Below are positions 37,965-49,005 of a DNA stretch of 64,000 bases, piece by piece. A model generated the notes under the pieces. It was not told the DNA's origin, did not search any database, and saw only the letters and a list, made by a program, of their open reading frames with translations. The translations under genes were made by a program, and so were the position numbers. Numbering within the stretch: the stretch's first letter is position 1; every line of letters begins with the position of its first letter. This stretch comes from an uncultured Candidatus Saccharibacteria bacterium (GTDB taxonomy: Bacteria; Patescibacteriota; Minisyncoccia; Minisyncoccales; CAZVLR01), in contig CAZVLR010000001.1 of assembly GCA_964628095.1 (NCBI GenBank), forward strand, positions 56,777-120,776, read 5' to 3'.

Positions 37965-38597
37965 TTAAGCGCCGAAATTCCTCAGCGCCTCTGAAATTTC
38001 AACCAAATTCAAATCGAAAATTACGCCCACGCAGGCTGAAGCCAAAACCGCGCAAACCTGCTCGCCTCCGGATTTGTCTTGCAGCCAAAAGGGCACAATA
38101 TTCCCCTTGTAATTGAGTTTAAAATTGGTTCCGCCGTTTGAATGAATGTCGCTGGCCTGAAAGTTAGCGCCCTCTTCAAATCCGAAAGTCAGCGTTTTTA
38201 AATTGGTAAGCTCGGCCACCTCGCCAAAAGCTTTGTCGTCTGAATTAAAAACTAAATATCCGCCCAGGGGCGCGGTTTTTACCAGCTTTCTAATCTTTTC
38301 TATTGTTTTCTTTTCTTCAGTTTTAGCGCCCGAGCTGGCGATTACTAAAATAAGCAAAGAGGAGTTCTTCATTAAAAAATCCAGCTCGGGCAAATTTGAA
38401 AAATCGTTGTCGAAAACAAAAACTTCGCTGTTAATTTTCAAATACGGCTTTAAAACCTGGTTAATCGCTTTTTTGGCAACCAAACGCGAACTGCCGCAAA
38501 CAATAATGGTTTTGGGCTTCTTTAAGGTTATTTTTAATTTAGAAAGTATTCCCAGCATGTTATTGTGTTTGATCTGGCGCAATCTGCCATAAATCAA
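37965..38597 (-). CDS. Mur ligase central-domain-like protein with degenerate P-loop (possible murE/murF remnant)
   Basis: KTIIVCGSSRLVAKKAINQVLKPYL aligns to the Mur ligase V.GITGTNGKTTT...L P-loop region, but GKT is replaced. The C-terminal VCAVLASACVGVIFDL..ISEALRNF resembles the HN..NALAA.A.A..LG block. Only 210 aa. It sits where murE/murF normally follow ftsI. Confidence 0.45.
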   Translation of the reverse strand: MIYGRLRQIKHNNMLGILSKLKITLKKPKTIIVCGSSRLVAKKAINQVLKPYLKINSEVFVFDNDFSNLPELDFLMKNSSLLILVIASSGAKTEEKKTIEKIRKLVKTAPLGGYLVFNSDDKAFGEVAELTNLKTLTFGFEEGANFQASDIHSNGGTNFKLNYKGNIVPFWLQDKSGGEQVCAVLASACVGVIFDLNLVEISEALRNFGA

Positions 38598-40275
38598 TGA
38601 TATATTTGGCCATGTCGCGGAATAAAGGCACGGCTGATTCTTCGGCCGAACTGGTTTTGGGATTGTATACTTTAACCAGAATTACAAATTGCGGGTTTAG
38701 GGCCGGGCCAAAGCCGATAAAAGACTGAATGGTTTTATCCGAATAGCCCCTTTGATTAATGCCCAAAGAAGAATAAGGCACCTGGGCCGTGCCGGTTTTG
38801 CCGGCTAAATAATAGCCGGGAATCTTTGTTTTCCTGCCATAGCCGTTTTCCACCACGCTAATTAGCATGGCGGTTAACTGCGAGGCGGTTTTTTGGGAAA
38901 TAAGATCTGATTTTTGCACCTTGGGCACAATAGTCTGAACGCTGTCCTTTTTGATTATTTTTTCCACCAAATAGGGCCTCATTAATTTCCCACCATTAGC
39001 AATGGCTGAAAAAGCCCGAACCAGCTGAAGCGAGGTGATTTCAATGCCCTGGCCAAAAGAAGCGGTGGCAAAATTAACGTCGCTCCCCTTTTTTAAGCCC
39101 TTGTTTTGAGAAGACACCTCGCCCTGCAAATCAACGCCTGTTTTTTCAAAAAACCCGAATTTTTCAATATAGTCCAAAAAATCCTGATGGCTGATCTGGC
39201 GCTGGGCAAAAACCGCCCCGGTGTTGATCGAATTTTCAAGAACGTTAGTCATGGTTAAAAGCCCGGGCCATTTTTTCTTGTTAAAATTTGAAATAACGTA
39301 CCCGCCAATGCTTTCACTGCCCGGATCAAAATAAGTGGTTTGCGGAGTTATCTTGCCCGAATCCAGGGCCGCCGCCATGGTAATGGGTTTGAAAACCGAG
39401 CCCGGCTCGAATATTTTTTGAATGCTGGAGTTTTGAAAAATATCCAAATTCTTAACGCTAGAATAATTATTGGGGTCAAACCCGGGCCAGGTGGCTAAAG
39501 CCAAAATCTTGCCCGAATTGGGATCCATTACAATAATTTCAGCGCTTTCAAATTCAATATCCTGCTGCGCTTTTTTTAAAACGTTTTCAGCTTGAAACTG
39601 AATATGGTAGTCCAAAGTTAAAACCAGGTCACCGCCTTTGTCGGGCAGACTGGAAGAGCCTCCAGAGTTTTCGCTATCCAAATCAATGTTGCCGCTGATT
39701 AAAAAACCTTTGGGGCCCTTCTCTCTTTCTAAATAAGATTCCTGCCCTCTCAATGCGTCTTCGTAAAAAGCTTCCAATCCGTACTGCCCGGTGTCGTCGC
39801 CCCCCAAAAAGCCTGAAACCTGGGAAGCCAAAGATTCCAAAGGATAGTATCTTAAGGTTTCTGTTTTTAAATAAACGCCGGGCAATTTTAACTCTTCAAT
39901 TTTTAAAGCTTCCTCATCGCTTAATTTATTTTTTAATGTTTCGTAATTGCTTTCTTGCGTTATCTTTCCCAAAATCTCGGCCTTATCCAAATTTAAAACA
40001 AGGCTCAGCTGCTTAGCGGTTTCTTCCTTTTCTTTAATTTCATTGGGAGCCGCATAAACAAAATCGGCCTGCTGGTTAATAACCAGAGGCGACATATTGC
40101 TAAAATAGATTTCCCCCCGTTCGCCCTGGGCCAAATCCATGAATTTTTGCTGGCCAAAGGCCATAGCCCGCCACTCCTGCGTTTTTATTATCTGAAAATA
40201 AACGAGGCGACCCGCAACGATCGCCAATAAAACGCTTAAAAGAAAAAAAACTATATTAATTCTCCATTCCCTCAT
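38560..40275 (-). CDS. ftsI: penicillin-binding protein 2 / FtsI-type peptidoglycan D,D-transpeptidase
   Basis: N-terminal TM. SxxK (GSVFKP), SxN (ENSINTG) and KTG (AGKTGTAQ) are all present. Confidence 0.85.
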   Translation of the reverse strand: MREWRINIVFFLLSVLLAIVAGRLVYFQIIKTQEWRAMAFGQQKFMDLAQGERGEIYFSNMSPLVINQQADFVYAAPNEIKEKEETAKQLSLVLNLDKAEILGKITQESNYETLKNKLSDEEALKIEELKLPGVYLKTETLRYYPLESLASQVSGFLGGDDTGQYGLEAFYEDALRGQESYLEREKGPKGFLISGNIDLDSENSGGSSSLPDKGGDLVLTLDYHIQFQAENVLKKAQQDIEFESAEIIVMDPNSGKILALATWPGFDPNNYSSVKNLDIFQNSSIQKIFEPGSVFKPITMAAALDSGKITPQTTYFDPGSESIGGYVISNFNKKKWPGLLTMTNVLENSINTGAVFAQRQISHQDFLDYIEKFGFFEKTGVDLQGEVSSQNKGLKKGSDVNFATASFGQGIEITSLQLVRAFSAIANGGKLMRPYLVEKIIKKDSVQTIVPKVQKSDLISQKTASQLTAMLISVVENGYGRKTKIPGYYLAGKTGTAQVPYSSLGINQRGYSDKTIQSFIGFGPALNPQFVILVKVYNPKTSSAEESAVPLFRDMAKYIIDLWQIAPDQTQ

Positions 40276-40619
40276 TTGGTTACCACTTGGTTGTCAATTA
40301 ATTGAATATAGTTGATTTTATCTATTTTTTCAAACCCCAGCTCCTGGATTTTTTGTTCAGTAATGTTCAAAGAGTTGCTCTTTAAAGAGCTTACCTCCAG
40401 CCTTTTATTATCTTGGCTTAATTGGGTTAATTTTGACTGATAATCGTTGATCGAATAGCCCTCTGAAATAATGGCATTTACCTGGAAAATATAGAAGCCG
40501 GCCATTAATAAGGCGCTGGCCACGCTTAAAACCAGCAAATATCTCAATTTTAAGACCCTTTTAAGATCAAAAAAACTGACAATTGAGAATGGGAAAGTGA
40601 TCGATAAAGCGTTATTCAT
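40272..40619 (-). CDS. FtsL-like cell division protein
   Basis: Single TM plus coiled-coil, 115 aa, sitting between rsmH and ftsI. Confidence 0.5.
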   Translation of the reverse strand: MNNALSITFPFSIVSFFDLKRVLKLRYLLVLSVASALLMAGFYIFQVNAIISEGYSINDYQSKLTQLSQDNKRLEVSSLKSNSLNITEQKIQELGFEKIDKINYIQLIDNQVVTK

Positions 40620-41496
40620 ATGTTTTTATGGCGCCTCTTAATTTAGCTGATCTTGAACGCGGGTTTGTTTTTACCTCGCTCGCTCCAGCCATAATCGGCT
40701 TTTTATTTATTAATAATATTTTTTTATTATGATAATTTTCCCGAAGGAAATTTTTAATAATCCTATCTTCTAAAGAATGAAAAGAAATTACCGCCAGCCG
40801 CCCCTTTTTATTTAAAACATCCAAGGCTTGGGGCAAAACTTTTTTTAAATTGTTAAGCTCGTCGTTTACCGCCATTCGCAAAGCCTGAAAAGTCTTGGTG
40901 GCAAAATGAATTTTCTGATGATGATACCAGCCGGGCGTTGACGCTTTAATAATTTCTACCAGCTGTAAGGTGCTTTTTACGGGCCTTGTATGCTTTGCAA
41001 TATTCCTGGCGATTTTCAAAGAAAACCTTTCTTCTCCGTATTCTTTTAAAATCTTTTCGATTTCCTGCTCGGGCCATTCATTAATAATTTCCTGGGCTGA
41101 AATTTTCTGAACCTTGGGGTTAAACCGCATATCCAGCTTCTCGTCTTTTTGAAAAGAAAATCCCCTTTTGCCCTCTTGCAGTTGCTCGCTGGAAAGCCCC
41201 AAATCCAGTAAAATGCCGTCAGCCTTTGGAAAATTATTTTTCTCAACGATCTCTTTTAAATTTGCGAAATTATCGCAAGCCAGAATTAAATTATTTCCAA
41301 ACTTTCTTTTTTCCTGCTTGATTTTAAAAATAGCTTCTTCGTCCCGGTCAATCGCCAATAATTTTCCCCTTATCCCGATTTTTTCCAAAATTGCAAAAGT
41401 ATGTCCGCCGCCGCCAAGGGTGCAATCGATAAAATTTTCTTTGGGCTGCGGGTTTAAAATTTCCAGTATTTCTTTTTTAAGAACAGGAATGTGCAT
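40612..41496 (-). CDS. rsmH: 16S rRNA (cytosine1402-N4)-methyltransferase
   Basis: MHIPVLKKEILEIL, DCTLGGGGHT and LLDLGLSSEQL motifs. Confidence 0.9.
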   Translation of the reverse strand: MHIPVLKKEILEILNPQPKENFIDCTLGGGGHTFAILEKIGIRGKLLAIDRDEEAIFKIKQEKRKFGNNLILACDNFANLKEIVEKNNFPKADGILLDLGLSSEQLQEGKRGFSFQKDEKLDMRFNPKVQKISAQEIINEWPEQEIEKILKEYGEERFSLKIARNIAKHTRPVKSTLQLVEIIKASTPGWYHHQKIHFATKTFQALRMAVNDELNNLKKVLPQALDVLNKKGRLAVISFHSLEDRIIKNFLRENYHNKKILLINKKPIMAGASEVKTNPRSRSAKLRGAIKTYE

Positions 41497-41497
41497 T

Positions 41498-41929
41498 TTA
41501 TACGCCTAGCTCTTTTAATCTTTCAGCAATATCCCCCACTTCTTTTTCTGTTTTCTGTTTATAATTGTTCCAGTTATTCTCATCCCAGATTTCAATGCGG
41601 TTATATAATCCAGCCACCACTGTTTTCTTTTTTAACTGACAATAATCTTTTAGATAATCAGGCACTAAAATTCTTCCTAAATTATCAAAGACAACTTCCA
41701 TAGCGCCCGACAACATCATCCTAGAAAATCCCCGGGCATCCGATTGAGCTAGCGGCAGCTGGCTTAACTTTTTGGCTAAAATATCCCACTCTTTTGCCGG
41801 GTATAAAAACAAGCATTGGTCCAATCCTTTGGTGATCACCGCTTTCTTTCCCAAGAGGTGCCTGAATTTTGCCGGAATCGCCAAGCGTTTTTTTTCGTCG
41901 ATTGAATATGAATATTCTCCGATAAACAT
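41498..41929 (-). CDS. mraZ: transcriptional regulator MraZ
   Basis: Two MraZ repeats (DEKKRLAIPAKFR and the second half). Start placed at MFIGEY, conserved in MraZ. The longer ORF-track start at 41992 would cover the operator repeats. Confidence 0.85.
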   Translation of the reverse strand: MFIGEYSYSIDEKKRLAIPAKFRHLLGKKAVITKGLDQCLFLYPAKEWDILAKKLSQLPLAQSDARGFSRMMLSGAMEVVFDNLGRILVPDYLKDYCQLKKKTVVAGLYNRIEIWDENNWNNYKQKTEKEVGDIAERLKELGV

Positions 41930-41952
41930 AAAAATTAAAATATCTTTTTTAC

Positions 41953-41993
41953 TTATCCCCAGAAAAGCCGAGTTATCCCCATAGTTATCCACT
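41953..41993 (-). promoter_or_regulatory. probable MraZ operator: three direct repeats TGGGGATAA / TGGGGATAA / (A)GTGGATAA upstream of mraZ
   Basis: On the minus strand: AGTGGATAACTATGGGGATAACTCGGCTTTTCTGGGGATAAG. MraZ operators are arrays of TGGGN-type direct repeats at roughly one helical turn spacing. Confidence 0.45.
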
Positions 41994-42175: not shown

Positions 42176-43837
42176 TTAATCTAGGCCTGAGCCACCCGGG
42201 CACTTGTAACTTGAACCCGAACAGTAACCTGCTTGGCCCGGATTAATATTGATTTCGTAACTGTTAAAACTGCTGTCTATGCAATACCAAGTTTTTTTGT
42301 CGCCCTCTTTAGCTGGCAATAATTCAGCAAAAGCGCAATATGCCTTACTAGACGTACGTAAGGTTGGATATTTTCCAAGTAAAGATTTCATGTCGTCTAA
42401 TAAAATTTTTATATCTTCGTCTTTATAGGTAACTTTTGAATAATTTCCGTTTTCTGAATAAATTGTTTCTGCCGCACTCATCATCTGCATTAAATCTGAT
42501 TTGATATAGGCATTTGTTTGATTGGTCTGAGCACCTATTAAAGAAGCCCCGATAATACTGGTCAAAATATCTCCTAGATCCTGAGCGTCTTTTGGTTCCT
42601 CGATATTTACCACTTTGCCATATTTTGAAAAATTAACAGCGAGGTTAATATTGGCCGCGCCGCTCATGGTTGGATCAAGTTTTCTAAAATCAATCTCTTT
42701 ATCAATTTTAATCCGGTAAATTAAATTATCTTTTTTGCCCACCCAAATTTCGCCACTTATCTCGCCAAGATTCTTAAAAGAATCTGTTATTGCTTTTTCA
42801 GTATCCTGCAATTCCTGAGCCGAAGGCATTTCTTCACCCAAGCCCGTAGCTACGTTAACCAAAAATTGAGTCATTGATTTTGCAAGCTCGTCATTATTTA
42901 AAACAATTAAATAATGATAGGCTTTTACATCATTGATGTTCTCGTCCGGCTTTTCTTCTTTTACAAAATATATTTTTGCGTTTTCCAAAAATAATTTTTT
43001 CAGATTATTAAGAATTAATTCTTGAGCCAGGCTAAATTTTTCCGTTAAATCGGATGAGTCCAGCAACGGGCTTGCTGAAGAAAAAAGGTTGTTGAGGCTC
43101 TCTTTATCTAATTTATACCATTGGTTCTGGATCTGACTTAGATCAATCCCCGACTCTTGAAAAATTTGTTCGGTCAGCAAAGAAGGCGCAGAAGTAATTT
43201 TTAAATAAAAACTCGGTCCGATTATTCTGCTTTCATAGCCAAAAGAAGAGCTGACTCCTTCAAAAGAAAAATCGATCGTGGTGGCGCCCGAAGCTTTCAT
43301 TTTCTTTTTATCCGTAGCGTCAAAGTCTCCTATTGTTTTGCTGGTTAATTTAATTTGCTCCCCGCTCTGGGCAGAAAGTTCAGCAGCGCTTTCGTAATGA
43401 AAATTTTTCACCGCGCTCATTTTCGCTACCGCATTAGCTATTATTTTTTCTGGCGCGGGCCTGAAAGGATTCCATAAAGGATCATAAATTTGAAAAGCTA
43501 AAACCGCACCAAGGCCCAAAACTAAAACCAAGACAACGGCCAAAGCAACGAAAACGGCTTTTAAAGGCGACTTTTTAAGCTTTGAAGGCGGAATTTCCGA
43601 TGTTTTATGGCTCGGAATAGCCGGTGGCAACGGTGGCGGAGGTGAAGGCGGCGTAGAGGGTTTTGGCGGCTCGTAAGAGGGCGCTTGATAAGCCGGTTTG
43701 GGCGTTTCGGGAACAAAAGAGGGCTCCGAGGGCAGGTTTTCCGGAGGCGCAGGCGGCTCCGTGTTAGGATTTATAGTTGGAGGCGTATAATTTTCTCCGT
43801 TCATTTTTTTGCCCCTTCCCCAAAAAAGCAGATTCAA
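42176..43837 (-). CDS. membrane-anchored protein with proline-rich cytoplasmic N-terminus and large extracytoplasmic domain
   Basis: Pro-rich low-complexity region (PPAPPENLPSEPSFVPETPKPAY...PPPPLPPAIP), then a TM (AVFVALAVVLVLVLGLGAVLAF). The C-terminus has a pilin-like segment (SAAETIYSENGNYS) and a Cys pair (CSGSSYKC). Confidence 0.5.
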   Translation of the reverse strand: MNLLFWGRGKKMNGENYTPPTINPNTEPPAPPENLPSEPSFVPETPKPAYQAPSYEPPKPSTPPSPPPPLPPAIPSHKTSEIPPSKLKKSPLKAVFVALAVVLVLVLGLGAVLAFQIYDPLWNPFRPAPEKIIANAVAKMSAVKNFHYESAAELSAQSGEQIKLTSKTIGDFDATDKKKMKASGATTIDFSFEGVSSSFGYESRIIGPSFYLKITSAPSLLTEQIFQESGIDLSQIQNQWYKLDKESLNNLFSSASPLLDSSDLTEKFSLAQELILNNLKKLFLENAKIYFVKEEKPDENINDVKAYHYLIVLNNDELAKSMTQFLVNVATGLGEEMPSAQELQDTEKAITDSFKNLGEISGEIWVGKKDNLIYRIKIDKEIDFRKLDPTMSGAANINLAVNFSKYGKVVNIEEPKDAQDLGDILTSIIGASLIGAQTNQTNAYIKSDLMQMMSAAETIYSENGNYSKVTYKDEDIKILLDDMKSLLGKYPTLRTSSKAYCAFAELLPAKEGDKKTWYCIDSSFNSYEININPGQAGYCSGSSYKCPGGSGLD

Positions 43838-43935: not shown

Positions 43936-46491
43936 CTATTTTAAAACCAGACTGAAATCACCGGGATTAATCTCAAAGCGGCTGCCCCGAATTAACTCGC
44001 CCTTTAACATGGACTGGGCAATTACGTTTTCCACCTTATCCTGGATCACCCGCCTCATTTCCCGGGCGCCAAAAACCGGATTATAGCCCAATTCAATTAT
44101 TTTTTCCTTTAAAGCCTGGCTAACGATAAAATCAATTTCTTTTTCATTCAAATTCTTCTTTAATTTATTAAAAAGCAGATCCGCAATCTGCAAAAGGTGC
44201 TCCTTGCTCAAGCCTCTAAAAACCACCACCGCGTCAAAACGATTAATCAGCTCGGGCCTAAAAGCGCCCTGCTTAAAAAGAAAATCTAACAATTCTTCTT
44301 TTACCCCGGGCATGGGCTTTCCTTTTTTAATCGCTTCTAAAATAACCTGGTAGCCGGCGTTGCTGGTGGCGATGATAATCGAATTCTTAAAATCTACTTT
44401 CCGGCCCTGGCCGTCGGTTAAATGCCCTTCGTCAAAAACCTGCAAAAACAGATTTAAAATATTAGGATGCGCTTTTTCAAACTCGTCGAGCAAGACCAAA
44501 GAAAAAGGATTTTCCGTTACCGGAGTGGTTAATAAACCCTCTTGGCCCAAAGAGCCGATTAAGCGCGGAATATCGGAAACAGACTGGAATTCGGACATAT
44601 CCAACCTGATCATTTTTTCTTCCGAGCCAAAATAGAATTCGGCCAAAGCCTTGGCGGATTCGGTTTTTCCCACGCCTGTGGGCCCCAAAAACAGGAAAAC
44701 GCCCATCGGCCCTTTTCTTACTGTAATATTGGCCCGCGCCCGCCGCAGGGCCGAAGCGATTTCCTTTACCGCCTCTTCCTGATTAACAATTCTTTGGTGA
44801 ATCAGCTTTTCCAAATTAAGCAGCACTTCTTTTTCTTCGGTTTTTAGCTCGCCAATGGGAATCTGGGTTTTCTGGGTTAAAACTTGGGCCACGTGCTCGG
44901 GCAAAACCGCGCTAATCTCTTTTGAGCTGGCCGCAAAAATCATGGTTTCGTCCAGAATATCCAAAGCTTTTTCGGGAAAATGAAGAGCGGGCAAATACTT
45001 TCCGGTTAAAGTAATAATTCCCTTTAAAGCGTTGTAGGTAACCATTTTTTTGTACTTTCTTTCTAAAATTAAAACCTGGCGCTCTAAAAGCATTAAAGTT
45101 TCGTCTTCAGATATCTCTGAAACTTCCACTTTCTTAAAAAGATTCAGCAAAGAAGAATTCGGTTCGATATTCCGGTGCAACCCTTCGTAAGTAGTTAGGG
45201 CCACTATCTGGAATTGGGGGTTTTTTAAATAAGAAGCGATCTGGCCGGAAATATCGATTACGCCGGGCTTTCGGCCCTGGCCCACGTAATTGTGGAAATC
45301 GTCGATGAATAAAATAACGTTGCCGGCCATGAAAACCTCTTTTAAAACAACTTCCAAGGTGGCTTCGGCCTCTTCGAGCGAGGGCTGGCCGGCCAAAAGC
45401 TTTTGCAAGTCCAGCTGCACCACTCTTTTGTGGTTTACCGTCGGCAAGCTCTGGCCCAACAAGCTTCTTAAGGCCAAAGCCAAAACAATGCTTCGCCGCC
45501 CCGTGCCCGGATCCCCCACCAGCAAAACGTTTTTATTGTCGCTGCGCGATAAAATCCGCTCCACCTCTTCAACTTCGTTTTTGTGGCCGATAACTTCAGG
45601 AAAGCTTCTTTTTACAATCTCGGTCCAATCGACTGAAAACTGATCCAGGTAAATGGTATAACCGGCTGTCCATTCTTTAGCCAAGCTTCCCAACCTGATT
45701 AAGTTGGTCCACTCCCAGAATTTTTTGCTGAATTCAATTCTTTTTTCAATCGATTCTAACCACCAAACCAGATTGCCAATGTCTTTGGGCTTTAAATTAA
45801 CTTCAATAAGAATATTTTTAAAAATCGGGTCTTCCTGGGCCAGGGCAAAAATCAAATCGCCCGTTTCAATCCGATCGTGCTTTCTTTCTTTAGCAATTTT
45901 TAAAGACGAAATTATCGTTTTTTGAAAGTCTGGCGAATAAACTTCCTGAAACCGATCTCTTTTTAAGGTTTCGAAATATAATTTTAAAGATTTTTCAACA
46001 ATCCTTGTGTCTATCATCGCCCGAAAAAGCACCGCATCCAGCTTGGGATTGTGCAAAAGCAGAAAATAAAACAGCATTGAGGAGTTAGCCTCTAAAAAAC
46101 CCTTGTCTTTAGCCAAGGCCAAAGAATTAGCTACGGCTTTTAGCGAATCAAAGCTTAAAAGCTCGGCTAAATTCAAGCTTAAAGTGTGCTCGGCAAAATC
46201 AGGGAATTTAAGCGAAGGCCTCTTTAATTTTAGATTGAAAAAAAGATCGCCCTGCCAGAAAGCAACCGACAAGGAAAAGCATATTACGGCCAGGCCCAAA
46301 AAAGAAGAAATTAAATCCTGGGAAAAGCTTTTCTCAAAAAAACCGTAAAAGCAAAGCGCCAAGAATATTAAAAAAGCGACAAAGAAGAGCTTTTTAAAAA
46401 TTTTGGCGTATTTGAACAAAAAAGCTTTCTCCCAAAAAAGCGAGGGCCAAAGCGCGGTTTTTCTCGGATTAAAATAAAAGCTTGAATCCAT
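43936..46491 (-). CDS. membrane-anchored ClpC/ClpB-like AAA+ ATPase with degenerate first nucleotide-binding domain
   Basis: N-terminal TM helices plus Clp_N-like repeats. NBD1 Walker A is GDPGTGRRS (canonical GxPGVGKT) and Walker B is FIDDFH (Glu replaced by Asp). NBD2 is intact (GPTGVGKTESAKALA and LLDEFEKAH). Sensor ATSNAG is present. Confidence 0.75.
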   Translation of the reverse strand: MDSSFYFNPRKTALWPSLFWEKAFLFKYAKIFKKLFFVAFLIFLALCFYGFFEKSFSQDLISSFLGLAVICFSLSVAFWQGDLFFNLKLKRPSLKFPDFAEHTLSLNLAELLSFDSLKAVANSLALAKDKGFLEANSSMLFYFLLLHNPKLDAVLFRAMIDTRIVEKSLKLYFETLKRDRFQEVYSPDFQKTIISSLKIAKERKHDRIETGDLIFALAQEDPIFKNILIEVNLKPKDIGNLVWWLESIEKRIEFSKKFWEWTNLIRLGSLAKEWTAGYTIYLDQFSVDWTEIVKRSFPEVIGHKNEVEEVERILSRSDNKNVLLVGDPGTGRRSIVLALALRSLLGQSLPTVNHKRVVQLDLQKLLAGQPSLEEAEATLEVVLKEVFMAGNVILFIDDFHNYVGQGRKPGVIDISGQIASYLKNPQFQIVALTTYEGLHRNIEPNSSLLNLFKKVEVSEISEDETLMLLERQVLILERKYKKMVTYNALKGIITLTGKYLPALHFPEKALDILDETMIFAASSKEISAVLPEHVAQVLTQKTQIPIGELKTEEKEVLLNLEKLIHQRIVNQEEAVKEIASALRRARANITVRKGPMGVFLFLGPTGVGKTESAKALAEFYFGSEEKMIRLDMSEFQSVSDIPRLIGSLGQEGLLTTPVTENPFSLVLLDEFEKAHPNILNLFLQVFDEGHLTDGQGRKVDFKNSIIIATSNAGYQVILEAIKKGKPMPGVKEELLDFLFKQGAFRPELINRFDAVVVFRGLSKEHLLQIADLLFNKLKKNLNEKEIDFIVSQALKEKIIELGYNPVFGAREMRRVIQDKVENVIAQSMLKGELIRGSRFEINPGDFSLVLK

Positions 46492-46867
46492 ATAGGAAAA
46501 TTAAAACTAAAATAAGGGGCAAAAGCAACCAGCATAAAAAAACAATTAAGCCCCCGATAAACACTAAAATTTCGGCAATGGCGCCGATAATAATAAAAAA
46601 GGTGCGCAAAAACGCCCCGATAATCCGCGACATCATATTTAGGGTAAAGGTTTCGGCCCAGCGCTGGAGATTTAAGCCCCGGCCGTAAGAAGCCTGGTAG
46701 CGCCGCCATGGGGAAAAGAAGGTTTTTAACAGTGTGGGCAGAGAAAAATAATTCAAATTAAAGATAAGGAAATTCTTCCAGGCCTTTAAAATATCGCCGG
46801 GTGCGTTAAAAAACTGCCACTCCAAATACTGGCTAAGAATGTTTTTCTTTGGGGAGAGTTCTGCCAT
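46469..46867 (-). CDS. small membrane protein preceding the ClpC-like gene
   Basis: 132 aa with a strongly hydrophobic C-terminal half. Overlaps the ClpC-like start by 23 nt. Confidence 0.4.
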   Translation of the reverse strand: MAELSPKKNILSQYLEWQFFNAPGDILKAWKNFLIFNLNYFSLPTLLKTFFSPWRRYQASYGRGLNLQRWAETFTLNMMSRIIGAFLRTFFIIIGAIAEILVFIGGLIVFLCWLLLPLILVLIFLYGFKLLF

Positions 46868-46941: not shown

Positions 46942-49005
46942 ATGCGAATATTTGAATTCCATTTTAATCCCAAAGCTAAAACCGAAATGATTTTCGACAG
47001 CTTTTGCTACGAGCCTGAAAACCTGTACGAAAAAAAACTCGGTTCGCTTTATCTGGCCGGCGAGTTAAAAAATGCCCTGCCCCAGAATAATAAGTTTTTG
47101 GATCATCTGTCCGAATTCCTAAAAAAAGAGTTTTATTCTTCCATCAAAAGATCTTCTGAAAACTCCTTAAAGGACAGCTTAAAAAAAAGCAACGCTTATC
47201 TGGGAGAAATTGGCAAAAAAGGCGACGTTTCGTGGCTGGGCAATCTAAGCTTGGCGGTTTTGAACTTTAAGGATTACAATTTGAACTTTGCCAAGGTAGG
47301 CGATTTTAAAATCGTGCTTTTAAGGTCGGGCCAGATAATCGATATTGGCAAAAGCCTGGATTTGGCCGAAATCGAGCCCTACCCCGTAAAAATCTTTGGC
47401 AATATTTTAACGGGAAAGCTGGCGGAAAAAGACGTGGTGCTGGTGATGACCAAAAACATTTTCTCGCTTTTTTCCCAGGGGGCCAGAATAAAAAGAATTT
47501 CCAAAGAAACCAATAAAAAAGAAAAGGTTTACCTGCCCAGCATTCTTGAAAAAGTGGCGAGATTAGCCGCCTTTGAAAGCAAGGAAAACCCCTTTTCAGA
47601 AAAAAAGCTCAAGGAAATATTAAAAAACAAGGAAAAAGAGCTCTTAATAAATTCCGGGCTTTGCTTGATTTGCTATTTAACAAAAGAGCAGGAAAACAAA
47701 AAATCAAAGCCCTTTACCTACCAAAAAGAACTGGAAAGGTTTTCCCCGATAAGGGCGGTTCAAAATATCTTCTCCCCTGTTCTTTCAAAAATTACCCCTT
47801 GGCTAAAAAAGCTCAAGGATTTTATCAAAAAACAGCCCTTTAAAAAAGAAAGCAAAGAAACGCCAAAGGAACAGCAAAAATTAAAGCTGGCTTCCCCCAG
47901 AATTATTTTTAAAAAACCCCATCTTAGTTTTCCTGAAAAAATCAGGAAAAACGCCATACTACTGTCTTTGTTTATTTTAATCCTAGCTGCTGGCTTCTTT
48001 ATTTTCAAAAAAGAAGAGCAAAGCCGACTGGAAGAATACCGGGCCACCTTAAACAGTATCCGCCAGGATGTTGATAAGGGCGAAAGCTATCTGATCCTTA
48101 GCGAAAACAAAAAGGCTTTTGATCTGTTTAAAAAGCTATTAGAAGATATCGTGCCTTTAAAAAATGAGAAGAAAATCCAAAAAGAAGCTTTAGAGCTTGA
48201 AAGCATAATTGAAAAAAACCTTAAGGAAATAAGTAAATTTACCGTGCTGGAAAATCCTAAGCTCTTTTACGAATTCAACGCCCAGGAATTCATCCCGCAA
48301 AAAATCGCCTACTTTAAGGGCGCCCTGTATGTATTCAGCCCGGTGAACGAGAATGTGTATAAAATAAGCCAGCAAAAAGATCAAACGAAAATTGAAATGA
48401 AGGAATTGCTCAGCGACGCCGCCGGCCTTGATAACTCCCTGGTTTTCCTTAAAAAACCGAATTCGGTGTATCTTTTGGAAAACGATAAGTTTGATATAAA
48501 CTACGTTTTAAACGACCCCTACCCTGATTTTACTCTTAAAAAAATCGTGGCTTTTGGCTCTAATCTTTACGCTTTTGACGAAAAAAACGGCGAGGTGATA
48601 AAATACCCGGGCCCCTTAAAAGAAGGCAAAGACACGCCGCAAATCTGGCTAGAGGTTGCCGGTCCCAAAGCCAAAGAAGGATTATCCATGGCGATCGATA
48701 CTTCTGTTTGGATTTTAAACAAAGACAACACTATTTCGCGGTATTACAAAGGAGCTTTGAAAGAAAAATTTGAACCGAGCATTTTTCCTTATCCCAAGGG
48801 CTTTTCTGAAATTACCCTTTCAACCAATTACGTTTATCTGCTCGAACCCGGCCAAAAAAGAGTTGTGATTTTAAACAAAGCCGGACAGGTTGTTAAGCAG
48901 TTCCAAAGCGAAAAATTCGACAACATTAAAGATTTTACCGTTTCAGCAAACGGTACCGTCTGGCTGTTAAACGGCACCCAAATTTACCAGCTGCCGCTCT
49001 TTTAA
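46942..49005 (+). CDS. large hypothetical membrane protein (possible degenerate PP2C-like N-terminal domain)
   Basis: 687 aa. Central TM (ILLSLFILILAAGFFIF). N-terminal AKVGDFKIVLLRSGQI is loosely PP2C-like but lacks the DGMGG metal-binding block. Confidence 0.45.
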   Translation: MRIFEFHFNPKAKTEMIFDSFCYEPENLYEKKLGSLYLAGELKNALPQNNKFLDHLSEFLKKEFYSSIKRSSENSLKDSLKKSNAYLGEIGKKGDVSWLGNLSLAVLNFKDYNLNFAKVGDFKIVLLRSGQIIDIGKSLDLAEIEPYPVKIFGNILTGKLAEKDVVLVMTKNIFSLFSQGARIKRISKETNKKEKVYLPSILEKVARLAAFESKENPFSEKKLKEILKNKEKELLINSGLCLICYLTKEQENKKSKPFTYQKELERFSPIRAVQNIFSPVLSKITPWLKKLKDFIKKQPFKKESKETPKEQQKLKLASPRIIFKKPHLSFPEKIRKNAILLSLFILILAAGFFIFKKEEQSRLEEYRATLNSIRQDVDKGESYLILSENKKAFDLFKKLLEDIVPLKNEKKIQKEALELESIIEKNLKEISKFTVLENPKLFYEFNAQEFIPQKIAYFKGALYVFSPVNENVYKISQQKDQTKIEMKELLSDAAGLDNSLVFLKKPNSVYLLENDKFDINYVLNDPYPDFTLKKIVAFGSNLYAFDEKNGEVIKYPGPLKEGKDTPQIWLEVAGPKAKEGLSMAIDTSVWILNKDNTISRYYKGALKEKFEPSIFPYPKGFSEITLSTNYVYLLEPGQKRVVILNKAGQVVKQFQSEKFDNIKDFTVSANGTVWLLNGTQIYQLPLF

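Follow-up and report, generated by a model that had tools for sequence, protein, structure and literature searches.

Introduction

Hsp100/Clp proteins are the textbook soluble threading motors. Membrane anchoring of an AAA+ ring is the arrangement of FtsH and Msp1/ATAD1, in which an N-terminal membrane anchor holds the ring beneath the membrane with its entry face to the bilayer; Pex1/Pex6 keep the pore loops of their second ring (D2), thread substrate and do not themselves span the membrane. We know of no membrane-spanning Hsp100, nor of one that lacks the pore loops of both rings yet has one fully catalytic ring. In Pex1/Pex6, the first nucleotide-binding domain (NBD1) is dead for hydrolysis (Walker B Glu replaced by Asn or Asp, Arg fingers absent) and NBD2 is active (PMC5447069). 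Torsins are relatives of the Hsp100 D2 module that are membrane-associated, lack aromatic pore loops, need membrane-spanning cofactors and are thought not to thread their substrates (PMC5425593). Here we analyzed a stretch of 64,000 nucleotides (the window, to which all coordinates refer) of contig CAZVLR010000001.1, deposited as an uncultured Candidatus Saccharibacteria bacterium, which carries two overlapping genes for an 851-aa Hsp100 protein and a 132-aa partner. Judging from sequence and predicted structure, the pair would form a two-subunit, membrane-embedded AAA+ machine in which only the second ring keeps its catalytic residues, and in which the canonical pore loop of that ring is deleted.

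Titles such as "uncultured Candidatus Saccharibacteria" may be generic labels, and lineage names were therefore taken only from specifically named records. In the full-text literature we found no published description of this family, nor of a membrane-spanning or pore-loop-less Hsp100 in Patescibacteria.

Results

Overlapping genes encode an Hsp100 family protein and a small membrane protein

The larger gene (43936..46491, minus strand) codes for a Clp/Hsp100-derived ATPase of 851 aa, as defined by its open reading frame (ORF) and by Pfam, NCBIfam, HMMER and homologue searches. The smaller ORF (46469..46867, minus strand) encodes a putative partner protein of 132 aa, with a conserved N-terminal helical part, predicted to be cytoplasmic, and a C-terminal hydrophobic hairpin. 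The two overlap by 23 nt (46469..46491, minus strand): in one frame the shared nucleotides finish the small ORF as ...YGFKLLF*, and in the other they open the Clp-like ORF as MDSSFYFN, with the ATG of the latter 23 nt ahead of the stop of the former. An identical overlap of -23 nt was present in 19 other species, and the spacing fell between -37 and +58 nt in 66 of the 73 pairs that could be measured. Because the first 24 residues and both membrane helices of the product are conserved in homologues, we conclude that the Clp-like ORF truly begins at the overlapping ATG. A 99%-identical public copy (P0001, 827 aa) is called 24 residues short and has lost this conserved N-terminus, probably an effect of gene callers that do not accept the 23-nt overlap. 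Scans for promoters and terminators around the gene pair were not informative, since shuffled controls yielded more sites than the sequence itself.

The 851-aa protein matched four Pfam domains above cut-off, namely AAA (residues 322-435), AAA_lid_9, AAA_2 (595-754) and ClpB_D2-small (761-839), and the identical set was found in all 40 family members tested. These matches make up two tandem AAA+ modules, the first (D1) of AAA type with AAA_lid_9 and the second (D2) of AAA_2 type with ClpB_D2-small. The closest solved relatives were ClpB (1qvr, E=3e-117) and then ClpC (6em8). By its domain content the protein is a two-ring (class I) member of the Hsp100/Clp family, and the family assignment made by a first-pass annotation of the window was borne out by the Pfam set and by the ClpB and ClpC matches. 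Scores against NCBIfam equivalog models were far under the cut-offs for ClpB (TIGR03346, 454.7 versus 1232.1), ClpA (TIGR02639, 404.2 versus 993; PRK11034, 305 versus 1350) and ClpV (TIGR03345, 385.4 versus 885). From N- to C-terminus, the order is a basic cytoplasmic N-terminus, a two-helix membrane hairpin, a Clp N-domain fold, a Trp-rich helix, D1 and D2, the parts before D1 being predicted as described below.

A homologue search of 5.8 billion proteins gave 814 matches below 1e-20. The best 120 of these 814 were all full-length (around 830-900 aa) and, besides one copy that was 99% identical, shared 55-62% identity with the query, and the named sources among these 120 were Patescibacteria. 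Family statistics were calculated on 63 sequences, the query and 62 others, one per species genome, and counts out of 63 below refer to this set. Mean pairwise identity was highest in the large subdomain of D2 (73%), intermediate in the Trp-rich helix (57%) and D1 (56%), and lowest in the N-domain (41%); as read from the alignment, all parts of the Clp-like protein are under purifying selection, in the order D2 > D1 ~ Trp-rich helix > N-domain. No second Hsp100 paralogue was seen across 84 loci (L001-L084), a result that concerns these loci and says nothing of whole genomes.

Adjacency and gene fusion tie the small protein to the ATPase

The first-pass annotation had noted a 132-aa membrane ORF overlapping the start of the Clp-like gene. 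The overlap is real, and the small ORF is not an incidental neighbour: out of 82 non-redundant loci, 80 have the Clp-like gene directly downstream of it in the same orientation, and in a sister clade the two are fused. The small protein had no match in Pfam, NCBIfam, PADLOC or PDB sequence searches. A word-indexed search returned 427 homologues, all unnamed and none with a Pfam domain, and a profile search of 1.84 billion cluster representatives recovered 1307 clusters (50% identity) at E<=1e-3. Scanning one genome per GTDB species, we found the protein in 147 genomes, the named ones among them being Nealsonbacteria, Paceibacterota, Wildermuthbacteria, Staskawiczbacteria and Parcubacteria.

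In an alignment of 43 sequences, the most conserved motif of the small protein was WKNFLIFNLNYFSLPTLLKTFFSPWRRYQASYG (residues 30-62; 46682..46780, minus strand), which can be written FNLNYFS...FFSPWRRY. Invariant residues were W30, L34, F36, N37, Y40, S42, L46, F51, W54 and Y57, followed by N77, R81, R88, E99, W113 and P117. The hydrophobic C-terminal region (residues 82-128; 46484..46624, minus strand) reaches a Kyte-Doolittle mean of 3.25 with a Hessa sum of -5.6, and probably forms two membrane helices. The AlphaFold model of the protein, with a predicted local distance difference test score (pLDDT) of 80, shows a helix over residues 67-131, and a Foldseek search of the model against the PDB found no fold match. 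A paralogous relation to the N-terminal hairpin region of the ATPase was also considered and rejected (hhalign probability 0.5%).

Searching with the small-protein profile also revealed fusions of 600-840 aa, in which the small protein occupies residues ~3-121 and is followed by the Clp-like ATPase. By BLASTP, the ATPase part of these fusions aligns only from query residue ~185-224 onward, and therefore the fusions appear to have swapped the hairpin and most of the N-domain of the ATPase for the small protein. A complete fusion also exists (P0435, 888 aa), which keeps both the small protein and the ATPase's own hairpin. We recovered 96 fused proteins with the small domain N-terminal, versus no fused small domain in 120 proteins of the clade with separate genes (the split clade). 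When the search was seeded with a fused protein, the small domain was at the N-terminus of 90 out of 110 newly found long proteins, with labels that include Parcubacteria and Portnoybacteria. Fused genes lie on several independent contigs, and their clade shares the family hallmarks, namely an NBD1 G[KR]x[TS] motif, a badly degenerate Walker B, the absence of NBD1 Arg fingers and an intact NBD2. One fused-type homologue (P0472) is labelled "Candidatus Bathyarchaeia archaeon" by NCBI, which probably reflects faulty binning rather than presence in an archaeon.

That the genes are adjacent almost everywhere, and fused in one clade, argues strongly for joint action of the two proteins in a single complex. 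Their sequences thus speak strongly for the small protein being a fixed, co-evolving partner subunit, encoded by an adjacent or overlapping gene in one clade and fused in the sister clade. Moreover, its N-terminal part should be cytoplasmic, considering that fusion joins its C-terminus to the cytoplasmic ATPase.

A membrane hairpin, a predicted Clp N-domain and a Trp-rich helix precede D1

The Clp-like protein begins with a basic N-terminus, predicted to be cytoplasmic (residues 1-34; 46390..46491, minus strand), which is conserved in the family alignment and contains 7 K/R versus 2 D/E. It is followed by two membrane helices, assigned by hydropathy and AlphaFold to residues 35-53 (46333..46389, minus strand) and 60-78 (46258..46314, minus strand). 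Over both segments the Kyte-Doolittle means are 2.3 and the Hessa dG sums are negative. The loop between them has 8 residues (53-60), and the hairpin is flanked by K/R-rich sequence both N-terminally and behind the second helix; these positive-inside flanks predict a hairpin with both N- and C-terminus in the cytoplasm. AlphaFold modelling of residues 1-290 with 40 sequences (mean pLDDT 84.6) gave membrane helices at 29-53 and 58-89 (pLDDT ~90-95), a disordered linker, eight helices between 108 and 230, and a long helix at 235-275. The membrane helices that had been proposed earlier for the first ~80 aa are thus a point on which hydropathy, Hessa dG and AlphaFold agree.

The eight helices (residues 107-232; 45796..46173, minus strand) are modelled as a Clp N-domain fold by AlphaFold and Foldseek, with no Pfam match. 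The predicted domain (pLDDT >90 for residues 110-250) matched the N-domains of ClpC, ClpB, ClpA, ClpV and Hsp104 with Foldseek probability 1.00 at ~15% identity, and with target TM-scores of 0.74-0.88. Clp_N (PF02861) went undetected by Pfam in the 851-aa protein even at E<=5, and the profile-to-PDB match was not significant; some homologues carry weak precomputed PF02861 matches. The "Clp_N repeats" of the first-pass annotation therefore hold at the level of predicted structure and not as a Pfam-detectable domain, and it is the predicted fold that suggests a Clp N-domain here.

Between this domain and D1 lies a Trp-rich segment specific to the family (residues 233-280; 45652..45795, minus strand), which corresponds to the long helix modelled at 235-275. 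Its invariant residues are W244, W259, N263, L264, K272, W274, G277 and T279. At 57% identity it is conserved to the level of D1, and it is kept in the fused forms.

D1 has lost its catalytic motifs and its pore tyrosine

D1/NBD1 (residues 281-527; 44911..45651, minus strand) was delimited by HMMER and family alignments and is a degenerate AAA+ module. Its Walker A, GDPGTGRRS (45490..45516, minus strand), aligns to GEPGVGKTA in HMMER comparisons with ClpB and ClpC, so that both the Lys and the Thr are replaced by Arg. Of the 63 family sequences, 49 have R and 13 have K at the Lys position, and none has S or T at the Thr position (0/63). Walker B is ILFIDDFH (45292..45315, minus strand), aligned to ILFIDELH with the Glu replaced by Asp; this position is E in 30 of the 63 sequences, D in 21 and another residue in 12. 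In the Arg-finger region LLNLFKKVEV (45121..45150, minus strand), aligned to ALERRFQPVYV of ClpB, both arginines are lost: the first is Arg in none of the 63 (S, N or other residues instead), and the second is L in 49 and Arg in a single one. The pore-loop region LLAGQPSLEEAEATL (45355..45399, minus strand) aligns to LLAGAKYRGEFEERL and has lost the tyrosine, reading AGQPSLEEAE where ClpB has AGAKYRGEFE. This region is variable and mostly non-aromatic across the family.

These alignments confirmed that NBD1 lacks a canonical GKT, as well as the earlier reading of GDPGTGRRS (Lys and Thr lost) and IDDFH (Glu lost). With RRS and DD, the window protein lies at the more decayed end of the family, and D1 appears dead throughout it. 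By its motifs, D1 is a pseudo-ATPase in which the Walker B Glu is under relaxed constraint and the fold is still conserved. D1 is held at 56% identity despite the loss of its motifs and would therefore be kept as a structure, not as an enzyme.

D2 keeps its catalytic residues and has lost pore loop 1

D2/NBD2 with the C-terminal small domain (residues 528-851; 43936..44910, minus strand) appears catalytically intact in the family alignment. Walker A is GPTGVGKTE (44659..44685, minus strand), Walker B is LVLLDEFEKAH (44467..44499, minus strand), and the further motifs TSN, NRFD and GAR are canonical. Seven residues show no substitution in any of the 63 sequences: the Walker A Lys and Thr, the Walker B Asp and Glu, the sensor-1 Asn, the Arg finger and the sensor-2 Arg. 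Degenerate D1 motifs next to intact D2 catalytic residues, below a membrane hairpin, fit the tethered protein with a single active ring that had been suggested before.

The description of NBD2 as canonical, however, applies to its catalytic residues and not to its pore loop 1, which is deleted. In place of ClpB GAPPGYVGYEEGGQ, the window protein has a truncated loop, GSLGQEGL (44533..44556, minus strand), that is six residues shorter. Alignment of ClpB RLIGAPPGYVGYEEGGQLT with the query gives RLIGS....LGQE..GLLT, and the family profile leaves a clean six-residue gap over PGYVGY. The loop is short in 61 of 63 sequences and has no aromatic residue in 62, and the pattern G[YFW][VIL]G was absent from D2 in 120 split-clade and 96 fused-clade proteins (0/120 and 0/96). 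The residue after the conserved Gly was considered as a retained pore tyrosine and rejected, since G-L-L-T falls on the helix start G-G-Q-L-T of ClpB. Pairwise and profile alignments both place the gap over PGYVGY, although the post-Gly residue could still face the pore.

We also looked for the two elements that couple Hsp100 proteins to DnaK and to ClpP. The M-domain is absent: the D1 alignment ends at ~517-543 and D2 starts at 528-529, leaving ClpB ~412-520 with no counterpart. The D1-D2 junction measures 45-46 aa in all 63 sequences, and ClpA aligns as a single uninterrupted stretch. As there is no M-domain, a DnaK coupling of the ClpB type would be missing. The segment from sensor 1 to FRPE (44248..44376, minus strand), where ClpA and ClpC carry their ClpP-docking loop, is of ClpB length; it shows a two-residue gap versus ClpB, and ClpC has extra residues, the docking insertion. 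A search of this segment for a docking tripeptide, [ILVMA]G[FLIM], found none in 63/63 family members. With no M-domain, no docking tripeptide and NCBIfam scores far under every equivalog cut-off, the label "ClpC-like" of the first-pass annotation was dropped, and the public labels "ClpC/ClpA ATP-binding subunit" on homologues are misleading.

Taken together, the family as we define it has a small-protein domain encoded upstream or fused, an NBD1 with G[KR]x[ST] and a D2 without GYVG, and all three are found in the sequences of the window pair.

Proposed mechanism and the threading alternative

We propose that the products of the two genes are the subunits of an Hsp100-derived AAA+ machine that is embedded in the membrane and specific to Patescibacteria. 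It would assemble as an Hsp100-type hexamer, its oligomeric state, orientation and stoichiometry being those expected from family knowledge, with the N-terminal (D1) face against the cytoplasmic side of the membrane and ~24 membrane helices (two per subunit, six pairs). D1 would serve as a structural spacer that possibly binds nucleotide, and ATP would be hydrolyzed by D2 alone. The conformational work powered by ATP turnover in D2 would be passed on by the rigid D1 ring and the Trp-rich helix to the membrane part and its clients. These would be membrane-embedded or membrane-associated, and the machine would reach them with its small subunit, N-domain and Trp-rich helix. This work would consist of conformational remodelling or rely on a non-canonical grip, rather than on tyrosine-driven processive threading, and the machine would neither feed a protease nor cooperate with DnaK as ClpB does. 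We favour remodelling without canonical threading in view of the deleted pore loop of D2 and the lack of constraint on that of D1. As a whole, the statement that this is a ClpP- and DnaK-independent, two-subunit membrane AAA+ machine, driven by D2 and remodelling without canonical threading, is one that we hold with moderate confidence. Genomic context gives a weak hint that cell-envelope or division proteins might be the clients.

A bolder version goes further, to a bacterial membrane machine of a kind not recognised before: the Hsp100 ring would have given up threading like Torsins, and D2 would drive the ring of ~24 helices in membrane remodelling, in gating or assembly of envelope or division complexes, or in handling a non-protein cargo, as a lineage-defining feature of Parcubacteria-type Patescibacteria. 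We put this forward tentatively, as possible rather than probable.

The strongest competitor is a membrane-tethered unfoldase or extractase, with D2 as the sole motor, that would thread membrane proteins or aggregates like FtsH, Msp1 and Pex1/6. Several observations speak for it, and some of them weigh against remodelling without threading. FtsH and Msp1, which are extraction machines, have exactly this topology, with the N-terminal face to the membrane, and the N-terminal anchor of the window protein would put the substrate-entry face at the bilayer. A fold of the kind that binds substrates or adaptors is retained in the predicted N-domain, D2 is fully active by sequence, and a dead D1 is compatible with threading, considering Pex1/6 (PMC5447069). 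The shortened D2 loop is itself highly conserved, with G646, G652 and L654 invariant, and L, I, Y or F follows its conserved Gly in both clades; a short aliphatic loop of this kind could still grip a polypeptide. As for the inertness of D1, an S or T is conserved one position past the canonical Walker A Thr in 50/63 split-clade sequences. The result is a shifted P-loop, G-[KR]-x-[ST] and not G-K-[ST], which occurs in the split and fused clades (the late hydroxyl being mostly T in the latter), and through which D1 may still bind nucleotide in an unusual manner.

On the contrary, canonical pore loop 1 of D2 (PGYVGY) is deleted, with G[YFW][VIL]G in 0 of 216 family proteins, and the pore-loop region of D1 is variable and mostly non-aromatic. 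The aromatic-looking residue of the fused forms aligns to the GG(Q)LT helix start of ClpB and not to the pore tyrosine, the N-domain is dispensable in the fused clade, and no protease-partner signature was found in the family alignment. The first-pass idea of a membrane-tethered disaggregase or protein-extraction machine is weakened for similar reasons, namely the deletion of the D2 pore-loop motif, the family-wide loss of the D1 tyrosine and the lack of an M-domain. On balance, we judge that a threading machine is the unlikely one of the two, while still deserving serious consideration.

Genomic neighbourhood and the remaining alternatives

Downstream of the pair, on the minus strand, lie genes of the division and cell-wall (dcw) cluster identified by Pfam: mraZ (41498-41992), rsmH (40612-41496), an ftsL-like gene (40272-40619) and ftsI (38560-40275). 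We report them as context, as they are not shown to be part of the machine. After ftsI comes a Mur-ligase-like ORF of 210 aa (37965-38597, minus strand) with only a weak Mur_ligase_M match, and then tRNA-Glu. Its counterparts in two other loci (L002 and L004) have 348-356 aa and a C-terminal domain, and the dcw cluster seems shortened in the window.

This arrangement brings in a second alternative, in which the machine is a cell-division or cell-wall factor, one that would use ATP to regulate the divisome or the peptidoglycan machinery or to chaperone their assembly. The order mraZ-rsmH-ftsL-ftsI is found downstream on the same strand in 56 loci and is missing from 24, only 2 of which are informative, having more than ~2.2 kb of downstream sequence; in 22 loci, the gap from the pair to mraZ is below 510 nt. 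Among fused-clade loci, a PcsB-like gene (CC_PcsB plus a peptidase domain) sits directly downstream of the complete-fusion gene (L090, 9713-11002), and another locus (L091, 12409-15176) has a PcsB-like gene, a 289-aa gene with no Pfam match and an ABC-ATPase gene ~3 kb from the fused gene. These last three are possibly an FtsEX-PcsB set, and the two loci together point faintly, for a second time, to division or the cell wall. However, dcw linkage is not universal, as six fused-clade loci do not adjoin the cluster, and between the pair and mraZ, split-clade loci have 0.17 to 7 kb of DNA in which the inserted genes vary. The upstream gene orf687 is often conserved too, so the linkage may be largely inherited gene order. 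We therefore consider the division or cell-wall link as a weak, lineage-specific hint and not as functional evidence, and a dedicated division factor as rather improbable. Such a role would in any case name a client and not an alternative mechanism, and it could hold alongside the D2-driven remodelling machine that we favour.

The gene orf687 (46942-49005, plus strand) is the divergent upstream neighbour of the pair; its 687-aa product has a central membrane helix and no Pfam or PDB sequence match. Homologues lie divergently upstream in 32 of ~80 related loci, which may make orf687 the third conserved gene of this neighbourhood. Visual inspection alone suggests a faint resemblance of the N-terminal half of its product to PP2C. 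The gene orf553 (42176-43837, minus strand), located between mraZ and the Clp-like gene, encodes 553 aa with a proline-rich N-terminus and one membrane helix. Its homologues occupy the same position in ~12 loci; it had no PDB match, and its sole domain match was to the faintly pilin-like ComP_DUS (E=0.18).

Two further regions of the window contain unusual genes. Between 55189 and 63703 (minus strand) lie five consecutive large ORFs, four of which have PD40 (WD40-like beta-propeller) repeats and the fifth no Pfam match; one of the PD40 proteins carries an N-terminal pilin-type methylation motif, and the cluster may be pilus-associated or belong to the surface. Between 16256 and 23339 (minus strand) are genes for giant proteins of 1207 and 1044 aa that end in PG_binding_1, one of them also having a beta-helix and a GDSL-lipase domain. 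Similar PG_binding_1 giants directly adjoin a fused-type Clp-like gene in another locus (L089, 8570-15497).

Homologues are labelled as ATP-dependent Clp protease ATP-binding subunit ClpC/ClpA, which would make the protein an ordinary orthologue that delivers substrates to ClpP. This is highly improbable, considering that the docking tripeptide is absent in 63/63, the NCBIfam scores are far under their cut-offs, D1 is catalytically dead and the pore loops have been lost; a weaker point is that none of the 44 window ORFs scanned matches CLP_protease, since they cover 64 kb only. An anti-phage defence ATPase similar to DolB of Dodola, or a decaying pseudo-enzyme with no function, is scarcely credible: the PADLOC models DolB and PDC-M37B do match D2 (E=5e-41) and the D1 motifs are degenerate, but the matches are limited to the generic AAA_2 core (DolB covers D2 residues 543-711 only), the neighbourhood is conserved in more than 50 species with housekeeping and dcw genes, both subunits are under strong purifying selection with the catalytic residues of D2 invariant, and the family is very large.

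Comparison with known systems

Among Hsp100 proteins, ClpB/Hsp104 provides the best sequence match, especially in D2 and D2-small, and shares the N-D1-D2 order, the Clp N-domain fold (as predicted) and the absence of a ClpP-docking loop. The window protein differs from it by the missing M-domain, the dead D1, the loss of both pore-loop tyrosines and the presence of a membrane hairpin and an obligate partner. With ClpA, ClpC and ClpE it has in common the direct D1-D2 join, as in ClpA, and a predicted N-domain fold that matches those of ClpC and ClpA, whereas it has neither an IGL/AGF-type tripeptide nor GYVG, its D1 is dead and it is membrane-anchored. ClpV/TssH scores under the cut-off, and no type VI secretion genes were present in the window or in the loci. 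The plant SMAX1/D53 (SMXL) proteins are Hsp100-derived and not known as unfoldases, and SMAX1 is a distant match (9kkx_D, E=3e-10); they are soluble eukaryotic transcriptional co-repressors, whereas D2 of the window protein is fully catalytic by sequence.

Outside the soluble Hsp100 proteins, FtsH and Msp1/ATAD1 are unlike the window protein in having a single AAA module and aromatic pore loops and in not belonging to Hsp100, and FtsH also has a protease domain. Pex1/Pex6 with Pex15/Pex26 share the two rings, the first dead and the second working, held at the membrane via a partner (PMC5447069), but they belong to the classic AAA clade and not to Hsp100, and form a hetero-hexamer. Torsin with LAP1/LULL1 is a single AAA+ module of the eukaryotic endoplasmic reticulum lumen that receives its Arg finger from the cofactor. 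The window protein, in contrast, has two modules, keeps the D2 Arg finger in 63/63, and has a small helical partner with no AAA-like fold, so the likeness to Torsin is functional only and not one of membership. It is the precedents of Torsin and of Pex1/Pex6 that make the favoured picture of a D2-driven, remodelling membrane machine plausible.

The module is conserved across very many Patescibacteria, whose genomes of ~0.6-1 Mb make a 3-kb module costly to keep. If the machine does not thread, bacteria would have their own version of the Torsin puzzle, and nature would have provided a test of an Hsp100 ring without pore loops; if it does, a short aliphatic loop would suffice for threading. A widespread annotation is also corrected, as the "ClpC/ClpA ATP-binding subunit" labels wrongly imply proteolysis coupled to ClpP. 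In conclusion, on the evidence of its sequence, the pair is a clade-defining, two-subunit, membrane-embedded Hsp100 derivative that lacks the features by which ClpB, ClpA/C/E, ClpV and Torsin are each defined.

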